Shown here: piece by piece, positions 39,998-53,644 of the stretch
Position numbering within the stretch: position 1 is the stretch's first letter
Layout: the number at the start of each line of letters is the position of its first letter
Source of the DNA: Fistulifera solaris
Lineage: Eukaryota
Length of the DNA stretch: 64,000 bases
Direction of reading: 5' to 3'
Assembly (NCBI GenBank): GCA_030295235.1
Contig: AP026167.1
Coordinates: 310,001-374,000, forward strand
Translations under genes and position numbers: made by a program
The notes under the pieces: generated by a model
Databases searched by the model: none
What the model was told of the DNA's origin: nothing
What the model saw: the letters and a program-made list of their open reading frames with translations, nothing else

Positions 39998-40120
39998 CAT
40001 TGCACATAGAGAAACAGTAAGGGCTTTGGAATTGTAGAGGGAAACAGTAGTCGCTGACATCAAATGAATACCCATTAATTCATTACTATTTTAAGTTACT
40101 CAAACAAAGGTACTATTCGT

Positions 40121-41296
40121 TCACAAACGCTCCAAGCTCTCAAGAAACCCTCGCAGCCTTCGTATGTATTCCGCCAATTTCCCCGGCCCATCGGTAATAT
40201 CGTTGTGCCCCCGGTCTGCTACCCACCACGGATCGCGTTTGTATTCGTCAGGAACCGCTTTGTGAAGATCTTGACCGTGACTAATCTCGACTTCTTGATC
40301 CAAATAACCATGAATGAGCATGCACGGACACCGGATCTTCTTGATCCGATCAATATTGGGATAAATATCCAAACAAGCCAAAAGACGACTGGGAGTTAAC
40401 ACACGCATGCCACTCGTAAACGGACTGTGCAATATCATTCCGCCGAGTGCTTTCTTTTGTTTCGCTACATTGGCTGCCAAGTAGCAACATGGTCCGCTTC
40501 CGACAGACTGTCCGTACAGGATTATTTTTTCCGTCCGTTGATTCACCACTTCTCGGCAAACATACTCATACACGGCATCAATGTCACGATAAGTGCTCGC
40601 TTCTTCAGGTACTCCTCCACTTTCACCGTACCCAGAGTAATCGTACACGAGTACATCGCAATCCAAACTATGAGCCATGACAATCTGCAGAGGAAACATG
40701 GCACCTATATCGGTAGCATTGCCGTGACTGTAAATGATGATACGAGTTCGTTCGGATCGGCGCGAAGGTGGCACCGAATACAAGACCGCGGCTACGTACA
40801 CTCCCCCAGGAGATGGAATTTTCAGAGCATGAATGGAGCCGTCTTCATGAGGCGGTACCTGCAATCGTGGATCTAACAAAAGTCGATATGATACCCCGGC
40901 TTTCTGATCACGTGAATCTCGAGCAATGCGCATCTTGGATCGTTTGCGACGCTCGACGGCTTGATCCGCAAGCTGCTCAAACGGCGATTTGATTTTTTCC
41001 TTGGTTTGTCCGTGAGTAGCTGGTGCCTCGAAGGGTCCCGAGCGGTCCGGACTTCTTATTTCTCCGACACTAGTATTTTCCTCATCGTTTTCTGCGTTTT
41101 CGTTCGTTTCCTCATCAAGAGGAGCTTCTTCATTGTGTCCTAAAACGCGGCCGCTTTTGTCGCGTCTTTCAAACTCGTACAATGCCGGCTCTGGTGGGAA
41201 GAAAGTCAGTGCTCCTGCAACACTTCCTTTATTACAACCAGATTGAACCCATAGGCAGAATAGCGCCGATATAGCGGAAGGACAACAACAACACAT
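40121..41296 (-). CDS. ABHD17: ABHD17-like alpha/beta hydrolase (putative depalmitoylase)
   Basis: N-terminal Cys cluster, FFPPEP, YSHGNATDIG, YDYSGYGES, YGQSVGSGP nucleophile elbow, D..V..SHG, GHND. Confidence 0.88.
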   Translation of the reverse strand: MCCCCPSAISALFCLWVQSGCNKGSVAGALTFFPPEPALYEFERRDKSGRVLGHNEEAPLDEETNENAENDEENTSVGEIRSPDRSGPFEAPATHGQTKEKIKSPFEQLADQAVERRKRSKMRIARDSRDQKAGVSYRLLLDPRLQVPPHEDGSIHALKIPSPGGVYVAAVLYSVPPSRRSERTRIIIYSHGNATDIGAMFPLQIVMAHSLDCDVLVYDYSGYGESGGVPEEASTYRDIDAVYEYVCREVVNQRTEKIILYGQSVGSGPCCYLAANVAKQKKALGGMILHSPFTSGMRVLTPSRLLACLDIYPNIDRIKKIRCPCMLIHGYLDQEVEISHGQDLHKAVPDEYKRDPWWVADRGHNDITDGPGKLAEYIRRLRGFLESLERL

Positions 41297-41742
41297 GGAC
41301 GGGCAATCGAATCGGAAGGTTTTATTGCGTGATAAACGAGGGGTGGTTTGTGTGTGCCTGTATTAGCTCGTTGTATTCGGGGAGCAATTTATAGCTTTCC
41401 TGACGTGAATTGATGTTTTCTTGTTATACACAGTACAAAGTGTGGATGGATCACAAGCACCGCAGCATGATACAAAAATGAAATGTCGGCAGGTCCTCGT
41501 TGCACATGACTTCATCGTCTCTCTCACATGTCGCGCGCAACAAACACGGCCAAAGCAAAGACTTTTGTGTCTTGTGTGTTCTCCGGGACGATCTGCTGGC
41601 GTGCCACCGATAAGCCCACTCTGCAACGGATAGATTTGTTTAATCGATTTGGGTAACGCATAGCAAGTGGGAGAAGGGCTCGCGTGCTATCTTACCATTT
41701 TTCAAAGATTGTGAAGTTAGAACAAACCTCGTAACTAACGTT

Positions 41743-41824
41743 GACGACGTGGCCGAGTGGCTAAGGCGGTAGATTGCTAATCTACTTTCCTCTGGAAGCG
41801 CAGGTTCGAATCCTGCCGTCGTCG
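41743..41824 (+). tRNA. tRNA-Ser (anticodon GCT)
   Basis: Acceptor stem GACGACG/CGTCGTC plus G discriminator; D-arm TGGCCGAGTGG; anticodon arm GTAGA-TTGCTAA-TCTAC; long variable arm; T-loop GGTTCGAATCC. Confidence 0.97.
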
Positions 41825-42037
41825 TTCTTTGTGTGATATCGGCATTTCGATTGCGTTGTGACAATTTTGGGCATAAGACCCGCAACAACAGGTGTGGGTT
41901 TACGCTTGACGCTTTTTCCTTCGTGATTCGTGATGCTTTTGTTGACGTGAGAACTTTCTTGCTGCTTGCTGTGATCCACCACATCAAAACTGATCACGAG
42001 TGTTCACAACAATTCTTTTATGCATAGCAGACTGGTT

Positions 42038-43159
42038 ATGCCGAAAAGCCCCACATTGTATCGATTAGCCGCGGATCGGCAATACCATAAGATCCCTTTG
42101 CGATTGCAAACCAACCCCGAGGATTTACTTTGGACAGATCGTTACGGTTCGACGGCGCTTCATATTCTGTGTCAAGTTCGCAATGTCGACAAGGGTCTTC
42201 TAGCGGCAGTGGATGCAATTTTAGAAAAAGCACCTGAGCAGGTATCGTGGGCGAATATAGCGAGCTGGACTCCTTTGCATTTCGCGGTCGAAAAACCGTT
42301 GGTGTGGAGAAGTAGTGATACGTACTCGACGGCGCTCATTCTCCGATTAATACGAGCGTGTCCCGCGGCTGTGAGTCAGCGAACGAAGGGAGGTTTTAAA
42401 ACCAAAACACCATTCCATATTGCTTGCGAAGCGGCTGCGGACTACAAAGTTCTCAAGGCCATGTTGACGATCAATCCATCATTAGCGACAGAACCCTACT
42501 CGAAACGAGATGCTTACTCATTGATCGAAAATCCCATTCAAGCGTTATGGAAAGCTCATCTGCATTTGAGTCAGTCCGGCTTCAGTGGAAGTAGTATGCA
42601 TCAAGCAGAAAAGAAAATGGCGCTGTTATTGCAGGCGGCACATTGTGGCACCGTTACATTTGCCAACAAAGAACGATCTTTTCGTATCCTGAACGCGGTG
42701 TGTGCCGTCAGGTGTCCTCGTGATTATTTTGCAAGGATTTTGAATGACCATGTGGACGATGTTCGATTGCCGGATGAAAAGGGGCTTCATGCCTTGCATT
42801 ACGCGGTGAGGAGCGTTTCTGCTGATTCACAATCCTACACGGAGTTTGTTCTAGAGGCTCTGTTAAGTGTGTTTCCTCAAGCGGCAGCGCTGCGTGACGA
42901 TGTCGGAAGGTTGCCCTTACATGTTGCTATATCCTCGACATTCCTGCAGTGGCATAGAGGCGGATTGCGCGAACTGACGCTAGCACACACTGATGCCTTG
43001 CGCACCCCAGACCCCGAAAGTGGTCTTGTCCCTTTTCTTGGCTCGGCCGAGGGGGCCAAAAAAAGTCGGATGCACTTATCGACTACCTATGAGCTTTTAC
43101 GAGCGGCTCCCGATGTTACCCTCATGTTGCACTCCGACACGGAAACGGTTGCAGCATGA
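42038..43159 (+). CDS. Ankyrin-repeat-like protein
   Basis: Repeated G.TALH / WTPLH / TPFH / GLHALH / GRLPLH motifs; C-terminal GLVPF...LSTTYELLRAAP. Confidence 0.8.
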   Translation: MPKSPTLYRLAADRQYHKIPLRLQTNPEDLLWTDRYGSTALHILCQVRNVDKGLLAAVDAILEKAPEQVSWANIASWTPLHFAVEKPLVWRSSDTYSTALILRLIRACPAAVSQRTKGGFKTKTPFHIACEAAADYKVLKAMLTINPSLATEPYSKRDAYSLIENPIQALWKAHLHLSQSGFSGSSMHQAEKKMALLLQAAHCGTVTFANKERSFRILNAVCAVRCPRDYFARILNDHVDDVRLPDEKGLHALHYAVRSVSADSQSYTEFVLEALLSVFPQAAALRDDVGRLPLHVAISSTFLQWHRGGLRELTLAHTDALRTPDPESGLVPFLGSAEGAKKSRMHLSTTYELLRAAPDVTLMLHSDTETVAA

Positions 43160-43598
43160 AGTCGTACATAGTTTAAAATTATTTGTGATGAATAGAGATA
43201 GATGTGTTATGATTACAGCACTAATTCCTTGTAGGTGGGATCGATTGTCAAATTGTAGCGAGCAATCATTCATTTACGACCCCCTTTTCGATTGCGTTTA
43301 TGTTCTTTGTGTAAGCGTTTGTTACATATTTTACACCAAAGTTTCGAGGTTTGTTTTTGGCCTAGACTACAGTATGGAAAGGCGAAAACGAAAAGGCTTT
43401 AGCGTTGCGTATTGCACAGCAACACCAGGGAGCTTGGCGGAAACTGCTCACTCCGAGCGGTTTCAGAATTTCGACCTTGTATGTCGTACCGTTATACACC
43501 CAATTAAAAAGGAACTTCTTTTCGGCGATAATTGTTTACTCTCAGCGCGCGGAACGGTTATATTACTTAGCAGTTGAAACGTGTTAAAAGTTTATTAG

Positions 43599-43720
43599 CT
43601 AGAGAGAGAAATCTCTCTATAGAGAGAGAAATCTCGCTTTAGAGAGATTTTTCTCACTATAGCGAGAGAAATCTCTCTATAGAGAGATTTTTCTCTCTAT
43701 AGCGAGAAAAAATCTCTCTT
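43599..43720. repeat. Left array: six 20-bp quasi-palindromic units in mixed orientation
   Basis: Units at 43601, 43621, 43641 (reversed), 43661, 43681 (reversed) and 43701; consensus AGAGAGAGAAATCTCTCTAT. Confidence 0.95.
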
Positions 43721-43889
43721 CTCGAAATGCACGTGTGTCCAAATAAATATTTCAATTAAGGTTAAACTTGATCCGTCAATTCATTTTTCTCCAATCAAGA
43801 ATCATCCAATGAACAAACACAAAAACAAAAAAGACTTCGGAGTTGTACACACTCTTCTATTTAATGAACTACAATTCGTCCTCGAATAT

Positions 43890-45062
43890 CTACTCATCAA
43901 TCAACCTCTTCAACAGGCTCATCGGGCTGAGCTTTGGAAAGACGAATAGCACGTTTGCAGGCCGAGTGCCATTCTTGGCTCTGTGTGCTGGTTTACGACG
44001 ATCCAATTTCAACTTCACTTTTGTTTTTACTGTTACAGGCCCGCTTTTGATCCGTGGCTCATCTTGGACAAAGTTTGTCGTCTCCATGCTGACTGAAGAG
44101 TCTGGCGAGTTTCCGCGGTCTGGGGCTGCTTCGTTTTCCATCAGCAATAATGTGCCGCTATTCTCAACAAGCCCGTCATCGTCTACTGGGGCCATTTCAA
44201 GCTGAAGCATCCGATTGCTTGCCCGTTCAAACTGTTGCATGTCATGATCCACTGCGCTCTCGAGCCGCAAGATGGCCTGTTGTTCGTCAGCGAGCTGTGA
44301 CTGCAGAAGCCGTAATCGTTCACTAATCCAGCCTTGTTTAATCTCCAGTGCATCTCGGTTGCATCTCAGTTCATTGAAACGCGTGCTAGAAACATTCCAC
44401 TCATACTCGTCCAACATGGCTTTCTCTTCAAGCTTCAGGACCGCATGCTGTTGTCCAGCCGCATGTGCATGAAGCTGCTGCAGTTTTTCCCGGCCTTGTT
44501 TCAGCTGCATCTCTAATCCTTTCAGTCGCTCATTCTGCTCAAGAACTCGATTCTTTTGATTGTGAAGCTCGCGTTCATTGTAGTTGACGCTGTCTTCGAG
44601 GAGCAACACTGCACCTTGCTTGTCAGTCAGCTGTGCATTGAGAAGCTGCAATTCGCCTTGTTTGTTTGCTTTCTTGATTTCAAGAGCATTGACATCTTCA
44701 GTCAACACACGAAGGTGCTCGGCTTTTTCTCGCTTCTTCTGGTTGCTGAGAGTAACAAGTCGCTCGAGCAACATTTTCTCTTGCTCTTTCACTCGAATCT
44801 GTTCTTCTGACGGCTTGAAGATGCGCTTGATCTAGACGGAGGCTTTCCGTGGATTCAACGGAATATTGCTCGAGCTTGATACGGTCGTGCTCAACCTGCT
44901 GAAGGCTTTTCAGAATCTGATCGCGTTTGAGATGGACATCTTTGTCTTGGCACTGAACTTCTTCCAGTTTTGTGAACAAGCCCGACTTTGCCTGCTCCTG
45001 TTGTTTGAGGAGATGCCGTGGTGGTCATCTTCTTCCTTAAGGTCCTGTGTGTTGCTTGCCAT
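43890..45062 (-). CDS. Long coiled-coil protein inside the element (apparent frameshifts near 45010 and 44808)
   Basis: L/Q/E-rich heptad pattern across ORFs 44910-45161, 44698-44979 and 43890-44792; likely ATG at 45062 (MASNTQ). Confidence 0.55.
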
Positions 45063-45181
45063 GCTTGCCGCTAGCGTCAAGAGTAGAAGGCGGATCAATT
45101 CGCTTGTATGATCGAATTGATGCTCGATGATAGTATGATAAATCTGTAGTAACATAGACAAGTCAAAATTGAAGAATTAGC

Positions 45182-46589
45182 TTAGTTGGTAGACATAGTA
45201 TCATCGCTGCTGTCGTCGTCTGAGTTACCTTCTTCGTCACTCAATTCCAAGTCTAATTCTTGCTCACGTTCCGCGTTCGACTTCAAAGTTTCTTCGGCAA
45301 AGAGCGCTTCTTGTTCACCCAACAACTGGCCAGTAGTTTCTTCTCCGCCCGACTTGCGTGACGCCGGCGCTTCTTTTGCTTCGGGTCTTTGCTAGTGTTA
45401 TGGATTTTCATCATACGCTTCATCCGCTCTGCCAATTCATCTAGCTTATCCTTTTTAGCAGGAGTTGAAGTTTTCTCAAAAGAGTCATCAATCTGCACTT
45501 GCCACATCACGTAGATAACGGTCCACTTCATCTTCTTGAACTTGGTAGGCAACACGTGCTGAATCGCCGTCAGCTCGCTTCCATGGATCTTACTCTGCCC
45601 ATCTGAGGAACCGAAACGATCATCAAACACACAGCACTTGTGATTCAAATTGAGCTGGACGGTGCGAGTTTGAAGTACGGGGGTTTCAAGCTTTGTGGCA
45701 AAGGTCTGTGTCATCGCCATAGCCTCGTCCGAAGTACATGTCGGTCGCTTGCCCATACTTGTCCTCGTCCCGTTCAACGTCGGCCATGATATCAGGATTC
45801 ATGTAGAAATATGCCGGTGCCGTCGGAATGGTAAGGCTAATGCTCATACCATCCGGTGCCAGCCGTGCAGAATACTTCCCAATGTCGTTTGGATCGAGAA
45901 CAGGCAAGCGCCAAATCAAACGCTTTCGCAACCCCCTTCTTCCGAGTCATGTGCACAAACGGAGTAGCTATCCCGAGGATGCTTTCCGGATACAAGCGGT
46001 TTTGGAACACATCGACCTCAATCTCAACTACGTCGTCAAAAAGCAATGACGCCATGTTCTCAGTCGCCTTTGCAAATGATCGAGGCAACGAGCTTGTTTT
46101 TCTGCAGCGCAGGTGAAGACTCCAATGCAATCAAAGTGTCTTGATCACTGGAGGAGGATGAAGACTGGCTTGAGGGACTGTCTGGACTGGTGTCTGAATT
46201 GTCTCGATCTGTAGAAGGGCGGATACCAGCTTTCTCTAGCACTGACTGGTAATCTTCAATCGAAAGTAATCTCCACTTGGCGTGAATGTGTTAGAAGGAG
46301 CTTTGAAAACAAGAAGAATAGTAGGAAACCATACCTTTTGAATTTTGTTTTCCACTTGGCGTTTCCTCTTTTCGTCTACGCCGTAAAGTCGACTCTTGGA
46401 CTTGATGAGATTTCCCAACTTGAAGCGGGGCTCTCGGCTCAAATCTTTCGTAAAGCCTCCGGCTTGTTCGATGTCGCGAAGAAGCTCGTTGAGTATTGGC
46501 TCTGGAAGTCCGTCCGATCTAGAACGAAGAGAGAGAGCGCTGGCTTGTTTTGTTGATGCAGATCTAGTTGCAGAGGATGATTTCTTCAT
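45182..46589 (-). CDS. Unknown element-associated protein (intron 46276-46334; about four apparent frameshifts)
   Basis: Splicing gives ...LLRDIEQAGG..LYG..RKRQVENKIQK|WRLLSIEDYQSVLEKAGI, then a Ser-rich linker, a beta-rich region (ORFs 45837-46130, 45686-45931, 45283-45777) and an acidic tail ending at TAA 45182. Confidence 0.55.
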
Positions 46590-47151
46590 CTCCGCAAAAA
46601 TAATGCGTTCTGAGTTCTGAATCTGGTTGATCTGGGCCTCTTTTGGACAACGATGTACGATGTATCATGTATCCTTGATGTTCAGGGTTTTCTGTTCTCT
46701 CAAACTTCGCAAGTCGCAAGAATCCTAAAAACGTCCGCTTTATTTTAATTTTGTATTGCCCTAATGCCTAGTTGCGTAAGAACAGAAGCCGCTATCGTAT
46801 GAAGTGTAGCAAATTCGTTTTCTAGATATGCCAGGTTCCTAATATATCGAGTTACTGTTTCATCCTAAATCACGAATTCCTAAATGAGTGTCTTGGGGCA
46901 ATAATAATTGCTCGGTAAAAAGTGACAAACGACAACGACAAAACACAAAACACACGTTGATCAAAAACCAAAAACATTATCATTGTTTAAGTTTCCTTCA
47001 AGCAACTTTCACTTTTCAGCTTTTGTTGCATTGATTCTGATGATTCTGATCGAAGAAACTTTGAAGGCTGACAATCTGTGTGACTAAATCAACAAAACCT
47101 ACCCGGGGCCCGCTTTGCTTCTTGTTCTTTCAACGCTCTTTTCTGGCTACA

Positions 47152-48173
47152 ATGGCCTTTCTCTTTACACCCAAGGAGATGATGGTGAAAGGCCTTCTCT
47201 TGATACCCAGCTATGATGTCAGTCGCATTAAAAAGCTCTGTCAAAACACCAAGCTGAAAGACTTTAAGCATTGGTATGGAGCAACGCCGGAAGTTAGCAG
47301 CGCAATTTGGAAAGATCTCCAAACGTGTGACAATGTCTCGAATCGAATCAATCCACGAAAGGTAAGTTCCTTGCACTCGATCACAATAAAAACACCATAC
47401 CTCTAAACCTTTACATGGATAGGCTCGTGTGGAATACTTTTTCATGTCTTTACATTTCTTGAGAAAGTATCCCACAGGTGAAGAACAAGCGAAGTTGTTC
47501 AACATCAATCGAGAGACGGTGTCGACTTGGACATGGTTCTTTCTCGAAAAGATCGCAGTCTTGGAGAGCCAGAAGATTGTTTGGCCGAAAGAGTGGGAAA
47601 AAGAGCGGTACGCTGCTGCAAGGAAGAAAGGGAAAGACCAGCAAGATGTCTATGCTGTTAGCTTCGGATGTTCGGTCGATGGAACTCATGGTCGTATCCA
47701 CGAACCGTCAGTGGGAGAGCCGCAGTCAAAGAACCCAATCTACTTCTCGCACAAATCTCATGGACCTGCCTTTGCTTACGAATTTGCAATAGATATTTTC
47801 CAAGATCGTCTTGTTTGGATGAATGGGCCTTTTCCTGCGTCTACCCCCGATAGAGAAATCTTCAAAAATGGTTTGATGAAAATGATACCCGATGGTATGC
47901 GTGTTGTGGCAGATAGCGGATACTCGGGAGAGAAATTGAAGCATATTATTAGTGGCCCAAATCCCCGTGACAGCAAAAAGTTGCGTAAATTCAAGTCGCG
48001 AGCAAGGTCGCGTCAGGAAGATTTCAATGCAGCGTCTCAAGAACTACAAGATTTGTGCCGAAACTTTTCGCCATGATCGATACCGTAAAAAGAGACACAA
48101 GGCATCGTGGACAGCTGTAGCTATTATATGCCAGTATCGAATTGAGCATGAAAAAACGTTTTGGAGTGTTTAA
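47152..48173 (+). CDS. DDE transposase, PIF/Harbinger/IS5-like (DDE_Tnp_4 type); intron 47362-47422; one indel near 48028
   Basis: HTH-like LHFLRKYPT..AKLFNINRETVSTWTW; catalytic SVDGTH, VVADSGY and RSRQEDFN; YFSHK, WMNGPFPA, FRH...H..AV. Confidence 0.88.
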
Positions 48174-48239
48174 AGAAAGATAGAAGAACTAAAGTTTTCA
48201 ATGCTGAACATTGAGCAAACCACTATTTATACATTGTAT

Positions 48240-48779
48240 CTACTTCTTAGATTTCTTACTCTTCTTCAACTTCTTTGATTTAAGATAAGCTATGAAGAGC
48301 TCGCGACGTTTCTCTTGCCCGATATGCTGGCGAAACGTACTGCGATCGAAAACTTGGTACGCCAAATTGCTCAGGTAAAGCTTCTTAAAACCCAACGATT
48401 CGTCAAGCTTGGCTCTCACATCACAACGAAGCAATCGTTGAGCTTCAGATCCATCCCAAACAGGCTTTCCACGCCTATCAATTACTTGCTTGGGGAACAC
48501 GGTACGATCCCGACGAAGAGCATCTTCGTCCGCGGCCGCAGAGGCATACAGTTCGAGATGCTCCTTCCGAAGTCTTTTGAGGTTGGGAGAGAAGTTCTTG
48601 AAAGCAAACTGCTGAAAAAGTTCCCGCCGATCAGAAAGATTGTAGACCTCTTCCGCTGACATTTTGGTTGAGTCAATAGGCACGTGGCCGCTCACAAGAT
48701 CATTGACAAGCTGCTTCTTCGCTTTGGACTTTATCCAGAGGTTTCCTTCCTTATCCTTTGGTCCCTCCCTTTTGGCCAT
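48240..48779 (-). CDS. Small basic protein with an internally duplicated domain, convergent with the transposase
   Basis: Intact 179-aa ORF with two copies of W-x2-S-x-A-x2-L...D...Y...(F/Y)QxF-x4-F and a Lys-rich C-terminus. Confidence 0.7.
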   Translation of the reverse strand: MAKREGPKDKEGNLWIKSKAKKQLVNDLVSGHVPIDSTKMSAEEVYNLSDRRELFQQFAFKNFSPNLKRLRKEHLELYASAAADEDALRRDRTVFPKQVIDRRGKPVWDGSEAQRLLRCDVRAKLDESLGFKKLYLSNLAYQVFDRSTFRQHIGQEKRRELFIAYLKSKKLKKSKKSKK

Positions 48780-49000
48780 TTTTCGATGCAGACCTTTTAA
48801 AAGAAATTCCGGCTGATATCAAATTACTCTTTGTTGAATGGAAACAATCTTCTTATTTCAATGGACTTGTCAAGAAGAACAAATACGGAGTATAATGTGT
48901 TTTGAGTGCGACGAGTTTTCGTCGAGTTCGTTAAACATTGAAAAGCCTTAATTAAAAAGCGTCATATTTTCTGTTGAGGTTCGTGGCGTACTCATTTGCG

Positions 49001-49080
49001 CTAGAGAGAGAAATCTCACTTTAGAGAGAGAAATCTCTCTATAGAGAGAAATCTCACTATAGAGAGAGAAATCTCTCTAT
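49001..49080. repeat. Right array: four units of the same 20-bp quasi-palindrome, all in forward orientation
   Basis: Units at 49003, 49023, 49043 (18 bp) and 49061. Confidence 0.95.
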
Positions 49081-49786
49081 GGCAACAAGCAAAATTACAT
49101 AGGGAATAAGGTGATTTACTATTATTGTATAAAACGTGAACTAGAACCGGATGCTGGTTGATACAGTTGTGTACTAAATTGATTCTTTTGTGTGATGACA
49201 TGTCATATAGACTAAAAGTGTAAATATCTTGTCACGGAGAGACTTCCGACAAGCACCCAGAGAGCAGAGAGCCACTCCTCAACAATTATCGGCATTAGGA
49301 GTAAGGCTCTCGATGCAGCGGGAATCGGGAATGTTCCTCAGAAACTCTGAAGTTGAGAGGATGAGATATGAGATGATAGTAAAATCTATAACTGACGTCA
49401 CAACGATTGAAATGACAAGTAGTGACATAAACAATGTCCGGCACTCAAGTGTACTATCGACTGTTCACTGTTTTGCTGACTGGTAAAAAATGAGACTCCC
49501 ATAATGAGTTGCAACAAACTGCAGACTTTGAACCACGGAGCTTTCGTTCATTTCGAATTTCTGAAACACGCTCCGCAAACCTCTCTACTCTCTATTAATG
49601 CTAAGCCATACTTGGTTGATTATTGCCGCGGAACTTGCGCAAGTACCAGTGGTGTCGAGATTGCACATTAAAAAACAAAGACAGCCGCAACGGATGCCCC
49701 CCGTGGGAATGCGAAAAAGGAATAGACCGTGCGAATCATCTTTCGTTCGCTAGCATTGTTGATAAGATTCGTCACAGATGCGATCC

Positions 49787-51891
49787 ATGGCGGGTGACAA
49801 TTGGAAGGTGAATCAAGATAGCGAGGTTCCTCACATGGTGGAAAGTAGTTTTGAAGACGACTACGATATCGCATGGTGCGATAGAAGGTATGCGGGCGAT
49901 GCTGACAGTTACGACGATCCGTATACATACTCGGATGATAGCGCTTCGCTTTCTGATGCGTATTTCTTCCCTCAGGCCGATGATGATCTAGCTCGGCCTG
50001 CGCGTTTCGAGAAGAAGATGCTTTGCATCAACATCCAGTTGGATCCTACGGAACCTTGGATAACGCCTCTAAAATAACGCTGCCGCTGTGGCTGGGCGGA
50101 TCCACCATTCAAGAGGACTCGGAAATGATATCGCTACCACAGCAGTACGATGACATGAATTCTCGCATAACACCCGAAAACGGTGGGAAACGCAAAAGAA
50201 TCGCCGTCAGCCCAGAAGGTTGCACGCGAAACAAAGAGAACGAATCGCTCGAGAAAAAGCGGTTGCGCAGATAAGGGGTCGTCCTCAGAAAGGGAATGAA
50301 TGGAGAGACAAAGTATTCGCTTTTCTATTCTTGCTGCAATTGGTTATAATCTGTCTCATCGCCCTGCGATTTGGCGTGCAAATGTATCAAAGTGACCCGA
50401 CATGGCTTCCGTCTATATTCAGAACCAAGGCGACGAGTGCTTTTGCGTCTCCTGGTCGTCAATTACACTCGGGCAGGAATCATGCTTTTGAGTTCACGTT
50501 GGACTTTAAGAACTTTCTTGACTTGGTCAGTGCTTCGGGAATATATGCCTTCATTATCGTTTTCATAAGCTTTGGCTTTATGATGGTGTTGGGAAAGGCG
50601 CTGATACAATTCATCCTCGTACTTTCAATCCTTATGGCTTTGGGCTGGCACATAATCGGTTTGACCGCAGACCCTTATGGCATCATTTCGATTGTGGGCT
50701 TCTCAGCGTTACTAGCGACTTTGGGCTATGCGTTTAGCAGCTGGCACCGCATACCATTCATCGCTACAAATCTACAAACGGCAATGCATGCGATGCGAAG
50801 CACTGCCGACATTACTATCCTGGGGATTGGTGGCTTGGCCGTTGCTTTTACTTGGATCATTATCTGGTCCATGGCGTTCATTGGTCTCGTGAATACATTC
50901 AACAGTGCCGACTGCACAAGTGATTTCAAGTGCGAAGCGCATGTGAAGAATGGTCGTCTCGCGCTCTACTTCGCTCTCGCTTTTTCCCTCTACTGGACGA
51001 ATTCCGTCATTAAAAACGTTGTCCGGGTGACTGTTGCGAGTACAGTTGGCACTTGGTGGTTCCGCCCGGATCATGTAGATCCGTTCTGTACAACAGCAGT
51101 GTCAAAACCACTGCAGCGTTCCGTGACAATGTTATTTGGATCGGTATGTCTTAGCAGCCTTGTTGTCCAGCCCGTTTGGTTACTGACAGGACTCTGGACG
51201 GTCTTCGGGTGTTTGTATGACAAGCAAGATGGGGATCACCCACCTCGGACTTTCACTGATGAAAGAAGGCATGATTTGGAAGCAACTCTTGACTTGGAAT
51301 CAGCTCAAAGTGAGTCGGCTGCTGATTCTATTGGTGCAACCCTGGAACTAGCTGGCTACCGTAAAAGGTGTCGCTCGTTTGTGCGATCATGCAATCGCTG
51401 GTCGTATTCGTACATTGGCTTGTGTAAGTGAAAAGAATAACTTCTTTTGTGTGCACTATACTTTTCGTTACTAATGTGCTTTGTTGCAACCAGATGGATA
51501 TTCGTTCGAAGAGGCAGGAGTTCGCGCACTTCAATTATTTGAGACGAGAGGTTGGCTAGCACTAGTCAATGATAGTTTTATTTCCAACGTTCTGTTTCTG
51601 GCCTGTATTATTACTGCAGGAAGCACGGGTACTTTTGCAGTTGTTATCGAGGAAGTTGATGGCTTCTTCCTCACTTCCTTTCACAAGCCGGTCATCACCT
51701 CGTTCATTGTAGGGTCGGTGGTAGGTTATGTCCTGGGGGACATACTTCTATTTGGTCTGGTTGCCGGTGCGGTGGACACGATCCTTGTGTGTTTTGCTGC
51801 TGCTCCGCTCGATTTTGACAAGAATCACCGATCCCTCAGTCGCGAAATGAGAGAAGCGTGGAGCCAGAATGTTTGGGAAGTCGTGCACTAG
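49787..51891 (+). CDS. Choline transporter-like (CTL/SLC44/PNS1) membrane protein; intron 51424-51493; frameshifts in the N-terminal part
   Basis: WRDKVFAFLF, RIPF..NL..A, YWT..V.KNV..VTVA..GTWWF, FGSVCLSSL, N.W.Y.YIGLYGYSF.EAG, VDTILVCFA. Confidence 0.85.
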
Positions 51892-52022
51892 CGCTTGTTG
51901 GTGCATAAATGTACTCTATTTATACGGTACGCTGAGCGTCTAATCTGTAATATTTTAAAGATAAATGATTTGTACAGGTCATATGAATAAGAAAGGTTAC
52001 CTTGATTTTCGGTAAGAAACGG

Positions 52023-52338
52023 TTAGGAAGTGTCGAATTCTTCGCCGACTCTCTCTACGGGTGAAAAGACGTTCGAGTCAAAAAAAGTTTTCGATTTTCC
52101 GCTCTATCTCCGCTTTGGCCTGCGCTTTCACCAAAAGATGAGTTGCATCTAAGTCTTGTAAAATGAACTTTTTATCAGCTGGCTTGAGTTCATTCAAATA
52201 CTGGATGAATTGTTTCGTAGGCACATCGCAAGACACCAAATACCCTGCCGAGGGTATCGCCTCCTCCGACGCTTCCTGTACTGAATTTCCTGCTGCTGCT
52301 CGTGCGTCTAAAGTCTTTAGCTTCTTTTTCGAAGACAT
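52023..52338 (-). CDS. GTF2H5: TFIIH subunit 5 (p8/TFB5); indel in an A-run near 52083
   Basis: GYLVSCDVPTKQFIQYLNE...FILQDLDATHLLV. Confidence 0.85.
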
Positions 52339-53644
52339 CTGTGCCAATTACGATAACAACGGTAAACAAAAGAAGCCTTTCATGTACTGGTATCTTTTGA
52401 CCATCGACCAACCTCTGATGCGGGAGTTCCGTTTATCGCGTTCATCGCCTAGCATAGCATAGAGTTAGGGGTAAACCTGATAACATCGTGAAACGATGAT
52501 TCGCATCGATTTGCTACGCTCTGTACTACCTCTACTTGCCAGCATCCTCGTTCCTTTTGACGTTTTCATCTCCCCACTCTAAAATAAGGGGAATTGTTGC
52601 AAAGTGAGTATCTCTTCTTTGTTTTGCCAGATCTTGTAGCCGAGGCCCAAGCCCAGCACACGACCCATCGATATGTGAGGACGACTTGACTACCTATACA
52701 CATCCTACGAGAAAGAACAAAGGCGGAAGTAATCTCATCTGAGGAAAGCTATTAGTAAAGTTACTTCTCGGATTAGCCATGGGTAAACATTAGACGAAAG
52801 GGCGAAGTCACTTTTCGTCATTTTACTTTCTCTCCGTCTCCATCAATACAATTTAAATTTACAATCGCCAAGAGATCAAGCAACCTGTGGCTTGAGTAAT
52901 TGACGTTTCTTCTGTTCCACCTCAAATACTCTGTTGTATGGGATTTCACTGCTTGACGACCTTGAGTGGTGGCGGTGACGGTGGTGATCGTCTTCTCTGT
53001 GAATTTCTGTGGCGGTAGGGAACCAACCGCAACAAGTACGGCACTGTAAATGAATAGAAAGGTAAAGTTAGAGTATATATCATAGAAATAGAGCAGGTAT
53101 TGCGAGATCGTGAACCTACCGGGCAGCACCAGAATACAGTGCACATTCCGCAAACGTCGCAATTAATGCATGCACTGCTGCATGCCAACGCGGATTGAAA
53201 TGGCCATAGCCATATACGCTGACAGAACGTATGCTCGGTCAGATCGGGAGTGATATCGCACCAATTCGGCATGGTATTACAAAAGACTTGATTCTGTGCC
53301 TTCGGCAGTGAAAGGCATTATCGAGTGGGCGTATGCTTTCGAATTATTTGATAAAAGAACAAACGTTGAGAAATCTCCACCCGCTGTAAGTTGTCGGCGA
53401 CGACTGCAACGCTTGTCACTCTAAATAAGTTAACGGATGATATTTCATGATACGGCAAACAAATTTGTAACACTATTCAAATGACTGTTGCGGCACTAAA
53501 TACAAAGCTATTTAAGAGAACAACATGATGGCAAAATTCGATGCTATGAATACTTAGGGTATTCGCCCGACCAGTACATTGGTCAACGGCTAAAGATAAG
53601 TGTAGGACAAAATGTACACGCTTGTTTAACCCAGACGTTTTGCG

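Follow-up and report, generated by a model that had tools for sequence, protein, structure and literature searches.

The window analysed here, a stretch of 64,000 nucleotides from the diatom Fistulifera solaris (assembly GCA_030295235.1, contig AP026167.1, positions 310,001 to 374,000 of the forward strand), is gene-dense, eukaryotic DNA of ~46% GC in which a transposase gene and its accessory coding regions lie between two arrays of one palindromic repeat unit. The original prediction, made from the letters of this DNA, had described the cluster as a four-gene, Harbinger-like element bounded by the arrays and interrupting a run of ordinary host genes. Here, we consider it as a candidate DNA transposon; all coordinates are those of the window.

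The transposase gene (47152-48173, + strand) corresponds to the annotated F. solaris gene FisN_UnNu085 (P0001, 319 amino acids [aa]) and encodes a DDE transposase of the type found in PIF/Harbinger elements and, more widely, in the PHIS (PIF/Harbinger-IS5) superfamily. Mapping by tblastn placed exon 1 at 47152-47361, a 61-bp GT..AG intron at 47362-47422, and exon 2 at 47423-48173. The Pfam family DDE_Tnp_4 (PF13359; cut-off, 24.8 bits) matched the open reading frame (ORF) of the window at 28.4 bits and P0001 at 38.4 bits, as expected from the prediction of a DDE transposase at this site, and the catalytic residues D156, D234, and E269 were invariant among 10 aligned relatives (alignment A1). 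Membership of PHIS is recognised by a DDE_Tnp_4-type domain and a conserved D-D-E triad, and on sequence grounds the predicted protein has both. The window's version is the same as P0001 except in the final dozen residues, and the window carries one surplus base at 48031 relative to P0001 and to a read contig described below. We also observed that the close clade P0001-P0007 shares an insertion of ~17-20 residues (EWEKERYAAARKKGK...) just ahead of the first catalytic aspartate (A1 columns ~145-175); the EWEKERYAAARKKGK insertion is missing in the 38-42% identical relatives P0009, P0010, and P0013.

Three further coding regions were found where they had been predicted, none of them with a Pfam match. 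A coiled-coil region (43890-45062, - strand; a 390-aa ORF after correction of indels) forms the C-terminal half of the annotated protein FisN_UnNu086 (P0032, 849 aa), residues 547-841 of which match window positions 44807-43923 with 100% identity by tblastn. The N-terminal half of the same gene model lies at 45182-46589 (- strand), where P0032 is 98% identical to the window fragment, and consists of a serine-rich linker, a domain without a family, and an acidic tail. Since the public P0032 model runs through this ORF directly into the coiled-coil ORF, the four coding regions of the original prediction are present, whereas its count of four genes is perhaps to be reduced to three; the two merged ORFs may encode a single 849-aa protein or two proteins of ~400 and 390 aa. 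The remaining region (48240-48779, - strand) is open in the window and encodes a basic protein of 179 aa with a lysine-rich C-terminus, 100% identical to the public protein P0023, whose relatives share 63-81% identity with it.

Pfam families were sought in P0023 and P0032 (E <= 1) and in the window fragments (E <= 0.1) and none was found, so that these searches detected neither a Myb/SANT/MADF nor a YqaJ domain, although remote homology is possible; this supports the original prediction, which had left the three ORFs unassigned and set the cluster apart from canonical elements with a Myb/SANT-like partner. Sequence and profile searches of the PDB with the accessory proteins returned chance-level matches only (E 0.58-0.86). 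When P0032 was modelled alone with AlphaFold2, the mean predicted local distance difference test score (pLDDT) was 45.9, and the model contained four long helices across residues 455-751, with pLDDT up to 79, which would fit a coiled coil. The 179-aa protein, modelled from a 5-sequence alignment, reached a mean pLDDT of 45.2, i.e., low confidence. In a protein-atlas search there were no usable feature matches, and all structural matches had template modelling scores <0.4, on models with pLDDT 0.43-0.44. A complex prediction for the transposase and the 179-aa protein scored 0.00, which carries no weight either way. An internal duplication in the 179-aa protein, suggested by a W..S.A(K/Q)..L motif that occurs twice, was rejected (alignment score 26 vs. 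a shuffle mean of 26.8).

The two arrays share one 20-bp unit. The left array (43600-43720) contains five near-palindromic 16-bp cores (TCTCNCTWTAGNGAGA) at 20-bp spacing with 4-nt GAAA/TTTT spacers, and the right array (49001-49080) contains three cores and flanking half-sites of the same unit. Tandem Repeats Finder (TRF) reported period-20 arrays at 43600-43719 (5.9 copies, 75% matches) and 49002-49080 (4.1 copies, 86% matches), and with the unit search these results confirm that two arrays of a single unit flank the transposase and the other ORFs. The unit TAGAGAGAGAAATCTCTCTA, allowing <=3 mismatches, occurs nine times in the 64-kb window and always within the arrays (9/9), while 100 shuffles yielded 0 matches; the exact half-site TAGAGAGA has 13 of its 15 window occurrences inside the arrays, where 1.73 would be expected. 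The spacers between cores are uniformly 4 nt long (GAAA, TTTT, or AAAA), and every unit includes an 8-bp inverted repeat. Folded as single strands, the left array reaches -39.1 kcal/mol (z -6.5) and the right array -19.3 kcal/mol (z -3.75) against shuffles. Since a 20-bp period is close to two helical turns, all sites would face one side of the helix. As a separate observation, two tandem CAGAGAG heptamers at 49258-49272 and, ~310 bp away, two tandem inverted CTCTCTA heptamers at 49582-49595 resemble array half-sites and adjoin positions 49237 and 49584, at which contigs of the read set X1 (below) form joints.

Frameshifts of 1 bp break three of the four window ORFs. Contigs of three coded public runs (X1, X2, and X3) were aligned to 40000-53000; since the X1 contigs, 51.6 Mb in all, covered all 30 depth bins, including those of intergenic DNA, X1 is very likely genomic DNA. 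One X1 contig of 4,962 bp, lying over 44075-49037, differs from the window by 2 substitutions and by 13 indel letters at 11 places. Applying the 11 indel changes opens the 390-aa coiled-coil ORF at precisely the coordinates of the original prediction, a 291-aa ORF with an upstream exon in the middle gene, and the full exon 2 of the transposase. In addition, the independently annotated P0001 and P0032 side with the read contig against the window. Since 11 indels stand against 2 substitutions, the pattern is that of error, not of natural decay, and these sequence comparisons suggest that the frameshifts of the window are probably assembly errors. A nanopore-only polished assembly of F. solaris has been described (bioRxiv 10.1101/2021.11.10.468027).

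Two observations on the indels may be added. Compared with L001, a metagenomic locus described below, the window is short of one G in a G-run at 43915-43925, outside the 4,962-bp contig; the coiled-coil C-terminus accordingly ends ...SPDEPVEEVD in P0032 and L001 and ...SPMSLLKRLIDE in the window, and this is probably a further assembly indel. Of the 11 indel sites (44808-48031), eight lie within 2 bp of a CG dinucleotide, against a background of 28% (binomial P 0.003, with a threshold picked post hoc), and such CpG clustering could be a methylation footprint, i.e., host silencing of a transposon, if the window derives from nanopore data.

Expression was suggested for one gene. An X2 contig spans 48316-48818 without differences to the window and, taking X2 to be RNA-derived on account of a GT..AG joint and a poly-T loose end, the 179-aa gene appears to be transcribed. 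No X2 or X3 contig lies over the transposase or FisN_UnNu086, which has no bearing on the expression of those genes.

The strongest argument that genes and arrays belong together comes from a deletion derivative. The search with the 179-aa protein had returned, as a weak match, P0027, one of four small proteins (P0027-P0030, 109-115 aa) that are chimeras of the 179-aa and coiled-coil proteins: in P0027, residues 10-48 are 82% identical to aa 2-40 of the 179-aa protein (E 9e-20) and residues 36-101 are 67% identical to the coiled-coil C-terminus (E 7e-28). The 90% cluster of P0027 has four members, each on a contig of its own (three ENA contigs and one JGI contig). When P0028 was used to scan metagenomes, a single locus of 1,015 bp, L001, was recovered, and the 9,377-bp contig of P0028 itself was not. 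The reverse complement of L001 aligns to the window in two blocks, positions 4-598 to 43502-44087 (82% identity) and positions 596-1015 to 48660-49083 (93% identity), and lacks the 4,572 bp between them (44088-48659), which hold the transposase and most of both FisN_UnNu086 and the 179-aa gene. At the junction there is a 3-bp CAT microhomology. L001 retains the two arrays and, of the two outermost genes, the outer parts, including approximately the last 55 aa of the coiled-coil protein, in unchanged order and orientation; the three core variants of the right array recur there in identical order, and the left array of L001 has six cores vs. five in the window. Altogether, five variants of this deletion junction are available, which differ at 1-7 of 109 residues.

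Internal deletion at a microhomology that removes the transposase and keeps the ends is the classic origin of non-autonomous class II derivatives, and L001 and P0027-P0030 are internally deleted forms of this kind, L001 with both end regions. Since L001 has lost the transposase yet keeps both end regions, comparison of the two sequences supports the view that the genes and arrays make up one unit that spawns transposase-less derivatives, as the original prediction had supposed for transposase, accessory genes, and arrays. The linkage of genes and arrays is thus seen in two sources. Arrays scattered independently of the transposase, accessory genes lying apart from it as syntenic single-copy host genes, or a match of the entire unit to a family described before had been named beforehand as observations that would speak against the prediction; in the tests run, none of these was encountered, the arrays being confined to their two places within the 64 kb and the accessory genes being linked to the unit. 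In a side observation, an X1 contig contains a joint that goes back 57 positions, from 44125 to 44069 (depth 44.7), and X1 loose ends occur at 44064 and 44139. This joint and the loose ends of 44064-44139 lie within ~50 bp of the L001 breakpoint at 44087, and the coiled-coil gene may here, toward its 3' end, contain a variable tandem duplication or a site prone to recombination.

A second line of evidence for a single unit is that FisN_UnNu085, FisN_UnNu086, and the 179-aa protein are all encoded on one small public scaffold of F. solaris, 5,612 bp in length. These data bear on whether the cluster could be a chance neighbourhood, in which a solo Harbinger-type transposase has lineage-specific host genes unrelated to it as neighbours and the arrays form a family of their own, of satellites or miniature inverted-repeat transposable elements. 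The accessory proteins do belong to no family, and apart from the chimera the coiled-coil protein has no relatives below 50% identity, which is what such a neighbourhood might look like. However, L001, which is only 82-93% identical to the window, fuses the 5' end of the gene for the 179-aa protein with the 3' end of that for the coiled-coil protein and has the arrays in the same relative positions, the three public genes share their small scaffold, and the array unit is found nowhere else in the 64 kb; we therefore regard chance association as very improbable.

Where the unit ends was approached from both flanks. L001 is ~90% identical to the window for ~100 bp outward of the left array, to 43502, at which its contig ends. 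When the 200 bp left of the left array were compared with the 620 bp right of the right array, local alignment revealed an inverted repeat, with its left arm (GAGCGGTTTCAGAATTTCGA) at 43455-43474 (+ strand) and its right arm at 49553-49573, that comprises 19 identities, 1 mismatch, and 1 gap (score 30) and brackets 6,119 bp. In 500 dinucleotide shuffles the mean score was 18.5 (standard deviation 2.2, maximum 27) and 0/500 reached 30, while BLASTN gave the same repeat an E of 0.008. The best direct match between the outer flanks scored just 19, and nothing longer than the 20-bp inverted repeat, direct or inverted, was found between the array flanks.

X1 contigs break in the same regions. Three contigs match the window solely from 43428 rightwards and are preceded by sequence that is unlike the window (agreement 0.54) and differs among the contigs, and window-identical flank contigs end at 43457 (43428+29) and start at 49521. 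With 31-letter words, these breaks correspond to repeat boundaries at ~43428 and ~49550; in agreement with this word length, the overlap of records 4 and 5 is exactly 30 letters. Summed X1 depth, which is not copy number, is 80.4 in the bin 49114-49547 vs. 27.3 in the next. Based on these observations, a left outer, subterminal segment would occupy 43428-43599 (L001 homology over 43502-43599, and X1 contig boundaries read by k=31 contig logic) and a right outer segment 49081-49573, ending in the right arm of the candidate terminal inverted repeat (TIR) and suggested by that repeat and by X1 depth. By both estimates, the unit reaches ~125-170 bp past the left array and ~470-490 bp past the right array.

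Since L001 homology passes the left array and both the significant inverted repeat and the X1 breaks lie outside the arrays, the arrays are probably not the ends but subterminal, inside short candidate TIRs. The original prediction of array-type ends in place of TIRs is not supported, given the L001 homology to 43502 and the inverted repeat outside the arrays. An element of 43599-49080, with the arrays as long palindromic "array TIRs," would agree with the 77-82% complementarity of the left and right arrays over 57-82 nt, with L001 stopping 3 bp past the right array and Logan contigs breaking inside the arrays, and with the length of the public scaffold (5,612 bp), which is not far from the 5,481 bp spanned from array to array. 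It is nonetheless improbable, given the identity of L001 to the window outside the left array, the inverted repeat further out, the high X1 depth beyond the right array, and the lack of a target-site duplication (TSD) abutting the arrays; moreover, any assembler would be expected to break in repeat arrays, so that such breaks are uninformative on termini.

Hints of further copies were obtained from X1. The interior contig has a depth of 37.4, window-identical flank contigs 14-20, and the array-adjacent contig 25.5, while the summed depth of the bins 43906-44339 and 49114-49547 is 84 and 80, respectively. Loose ends at 43462, 43469, and 44064 resemble diverged versions of the window sequence, and 30-mers of the X1 loose ends were not found elsewhere in the window; nor did 43400-49400 show a second similarity elsewhere in the 64 kb (BLASTN, E <= 1e-3). 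One contig joins 43710 to 49237, skipping 5,526 bp (depth 12.7, 24-letter side, 85% likeness), and three more joints of roughly single-copy depth connect 43463 to 43590, 43466 to 43709 on opposite strands, and 49584 to 49787. F. solaris is an allopolyploid, and the four joints could represent one short, single-array allele, either at the homoeologous site or as a mini-derivative elsewhere. The locus tag "UnNu," as we read it, would with the unlinked scaffolds of this species fit a collapsed repeat; 53 of 295 pyrosequencing scaffolds are given as unlinked (bioRxiv 10.1101/2021.11.10.468027).

Relatives of the proteins are few. Of 131 candidates in the transposase search, 22 proteins passed E <= 1e-3. 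Seven of these, all from ENA/Logan contigs, are 60-84% identical, and MMETSP and JGI entries are among those of the next tier (32-39%). F. solaris is the only named source among these matches. The search with the 179-aa protein retained 5 of 152 candidates, and that with the coiled-coil protein, among 1.84 billion representatives, found nothing beyond P0032, the chimera P0027, and a single generic protein of coiled-coil type. Decayed relatives were also seen; P0031 and P0008 lose similarity past residue 265, ahead of the catalytic E, and P0026 is without its first 72 aa. In collections of viral and genome contigs, neither the array pattern nor the transposase alignment A1, used as query, gave a match.

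This distribution invites the question of whether the cluster has been domesticated, i.e., whether a host-co-opted transposase and its neighbours persist as an immobile locus, the arrays serving as regulatory or insulator sequences and L001 being an orthologous locus that has decayed in a related diatom. PIF proteins have been co-domesticated repeatedly, and in HARBI1/NAIF1, ALP1/ALP2, and HDP1/HDP2 a domesticated Harbinger transposase is conserved alongside a partner gene (PMC9710019). At the present locus, the single annotated copy in the public F. solaris proteome, the good conservation of the transposase clade (60-84% identity, with intact exon-2 ORFs in the six relatives P0002-P0007), the apparent transcription of the 179-aa gene, and the failure to find a TSD or an empty site would all be compatible with co-option. 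However, the domesticated pairs are single-copy host genes without transposon ends, whereas this cluster has end regions, arrays, and a transposase whose catalytic triad is fully retained. The transposase-less derivative, in five sequence variants, keeps both arrays and end segments, frameshifted and truncated relatives exist, and in X1 the end segments are joined to other sequence. Furthermore, at the E threshold of 1e-3, other annotated diatoms yielded no named homologue, the unattributed MMETSP/JGI entries at 32-39% identity aside. We consider domestication unlikely, if somewhat less so than termini formed by the arrays.

Taken together, these results argue for the region being a low-copy, probably autonomous, cut-and-paste DNA transposon of the PHIS superfamily in F. 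solaris or a very close relative, a reading that we favour with some reservation. With similar reservation, its span is put at ~6.1 kb, roughly 43455-49573 and at least 43502-49083. Several results weigh against this reading. Only one annotated copy is present in the public proteome, and L001, which is too short to include flanking DNA, could represent the orthologous locus in a relative and is no proof of transposition. The inverted repeat (43455/49573) and the read-contig boundaries (43428/49550) differ by 23-27 bp, both sides being shifted in one direction, so at most one of the two estimates is true, and no TSD (TWA, ANT, CWG, or other) was found at any of the candidate ends, whether array edges, inverted-repeat edges, or contig boundaries. 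X1 contained no clean empty site; its sole long joint (43710-49237) is one contig with a short side and may stem from repeats. Summed contig depth is not copy number, and as F. solaris is allopolyploid, homoeologues could explain some of the apparent other copies; the three unlike sequences left of 43428, the long joint, and the doubled depth of the interior could each be mimicked by homoeologues or repeats. Variants among the array units are not compensatory, so the arrays give no support for a hairpin function over duplex binding sites. Lastly, the structure models of both accessory proteins are of low confidence (mean pLDDT 45-46).

Among mobile elements, this is an unusual version of a kind already known and not a new kind. 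As in PIF/Harbinger elements such as Harbinger3_DR, the element encodes a DDE_Tnp_4-type transposase and at least one other protein, its repeated subterminal motifs probably recruit proteins, and the candidate TIRs are short, the range reported for the group being 5 to 1042 bp (PMC4482050). Unlike PIF/Harbinger proper, no Myb/SANT/MADF ORF was detected and no TWA duplication was seen at the candidate ends, two or three accessory coding regions are present, including a coiled coil of ~300 residues, and the subterminal motif, a 16-bp palindrome, is tandemly arrayed with a strict 20-bp period. Pangu elements, which have been found in a heterokont and in algae, average ~3.5 kb in length and carry a second ORF without known motifs, TIRs starting with AG or GG, and ANT duplications, and TSDs of ANT, CWG, or C|TNA|G enter the definitions of the Pangu, NuwaI, and NuwaII groups (PMC4482050). 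Compared by description, our element resembles Pangu in its second ORF without known motifs and its heterokont occurrence and differs from it in its length of ~6.1 kb and in showing no ANT duplication. ISL2EU elements have a second ORF with a YqaJ domain, to which neither P0023 nor P0032 gave a Pfam match.

Beyond this superfamily, Ac/Ds (hAT) and En/Spm (CACTA) elements also have clusters of protein-binding motifs inside their TIRs and internally deleted derivatives that keep both ends, as here; they belong, however, to other transposase superfamilies, and their motifs are dispersed or irregular and do not form a palindromic array of perfect period. DNA transposons of diatoms are, to our knowledge, barely characterised. 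Harbinger-like elements in Thalassiosira receive a passing mention (PMC2806351). We found no published description of the present element in the literature, although Repbase and Dfam lay outside that search and an earlier description is therefore possible. It is conceivable, if doubtful, that the element represents, as founding member, a diatom lineage of PHIS not described before, in which the Myb/SANT ORF1 has been replaced by a basic protein of 179 aa and a large protein with a coiled coil of ~300 residues, which would read the phased palindrome arrays and bridge the ends.

A mechanism of this kind might operate as follows. The arrays of 16-bp palindromic cores, spaced at 20 bp, would act as subterminal binding platforms on which an element-encoded DNA-binding protein could load cooperatively, join the ends, and recruit the transposase to the short TIRs just outside, while the coiled coil could bridge the two ends. 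Binding of the arrays by such a protein is suggested by analogy with Harbinger3_DR, in which a subterminal motif of 9 bp is bound by the Myb-like protein (PMC9710019). Excision followed by interrupted gap repair might then produce transposase-less derivatives that keep the arrays, such as L001.

The unit interrupts a run of ordinary host genes, as predicted. Its immediate neighbours are alpha/beta hydrolase, ankyrin-repeat, and choline-transporter-like genes, and genes for topoisomerase I, Cys-tRNA synthetase, transaldolase, a proteasome ATPase, and others lie farther away. Between the hydrolase gene and the ankyrin gene, a tRNA-Ser gene (anticodon GCT) occupies 41742-41825 (+ strand). At 51423-51494, a stretch of 70 bp with GT..AG ends is skipped in run X2, confirming an intron of the choline-transporter-like gene. 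Upstream of that ORF, a gene is split over three overlapping frames near 50007, and two X1 contigs (summed depth 69.3) have an extra C behind 50007; therefore, the flank also contains an assembly frameshift.

The unit accounts for one previously unlinked scaffold of F. solaris, and the probable assembly frameshifts in the window's copy matter for the annotation of its genes. If active, a low-copy transposon such as this one in an oleaginous production strain could possibly serve as a tool for insertional mutagenesis, and its 16-bp palindrome and small basic protein make up a compact candidate pair for DNA-protein recognition. If the interpretation is correct, a PHIS element with phased palindromic arrays, novel proteins, and no Myb partner would point to modular end recognition within the superfamily.

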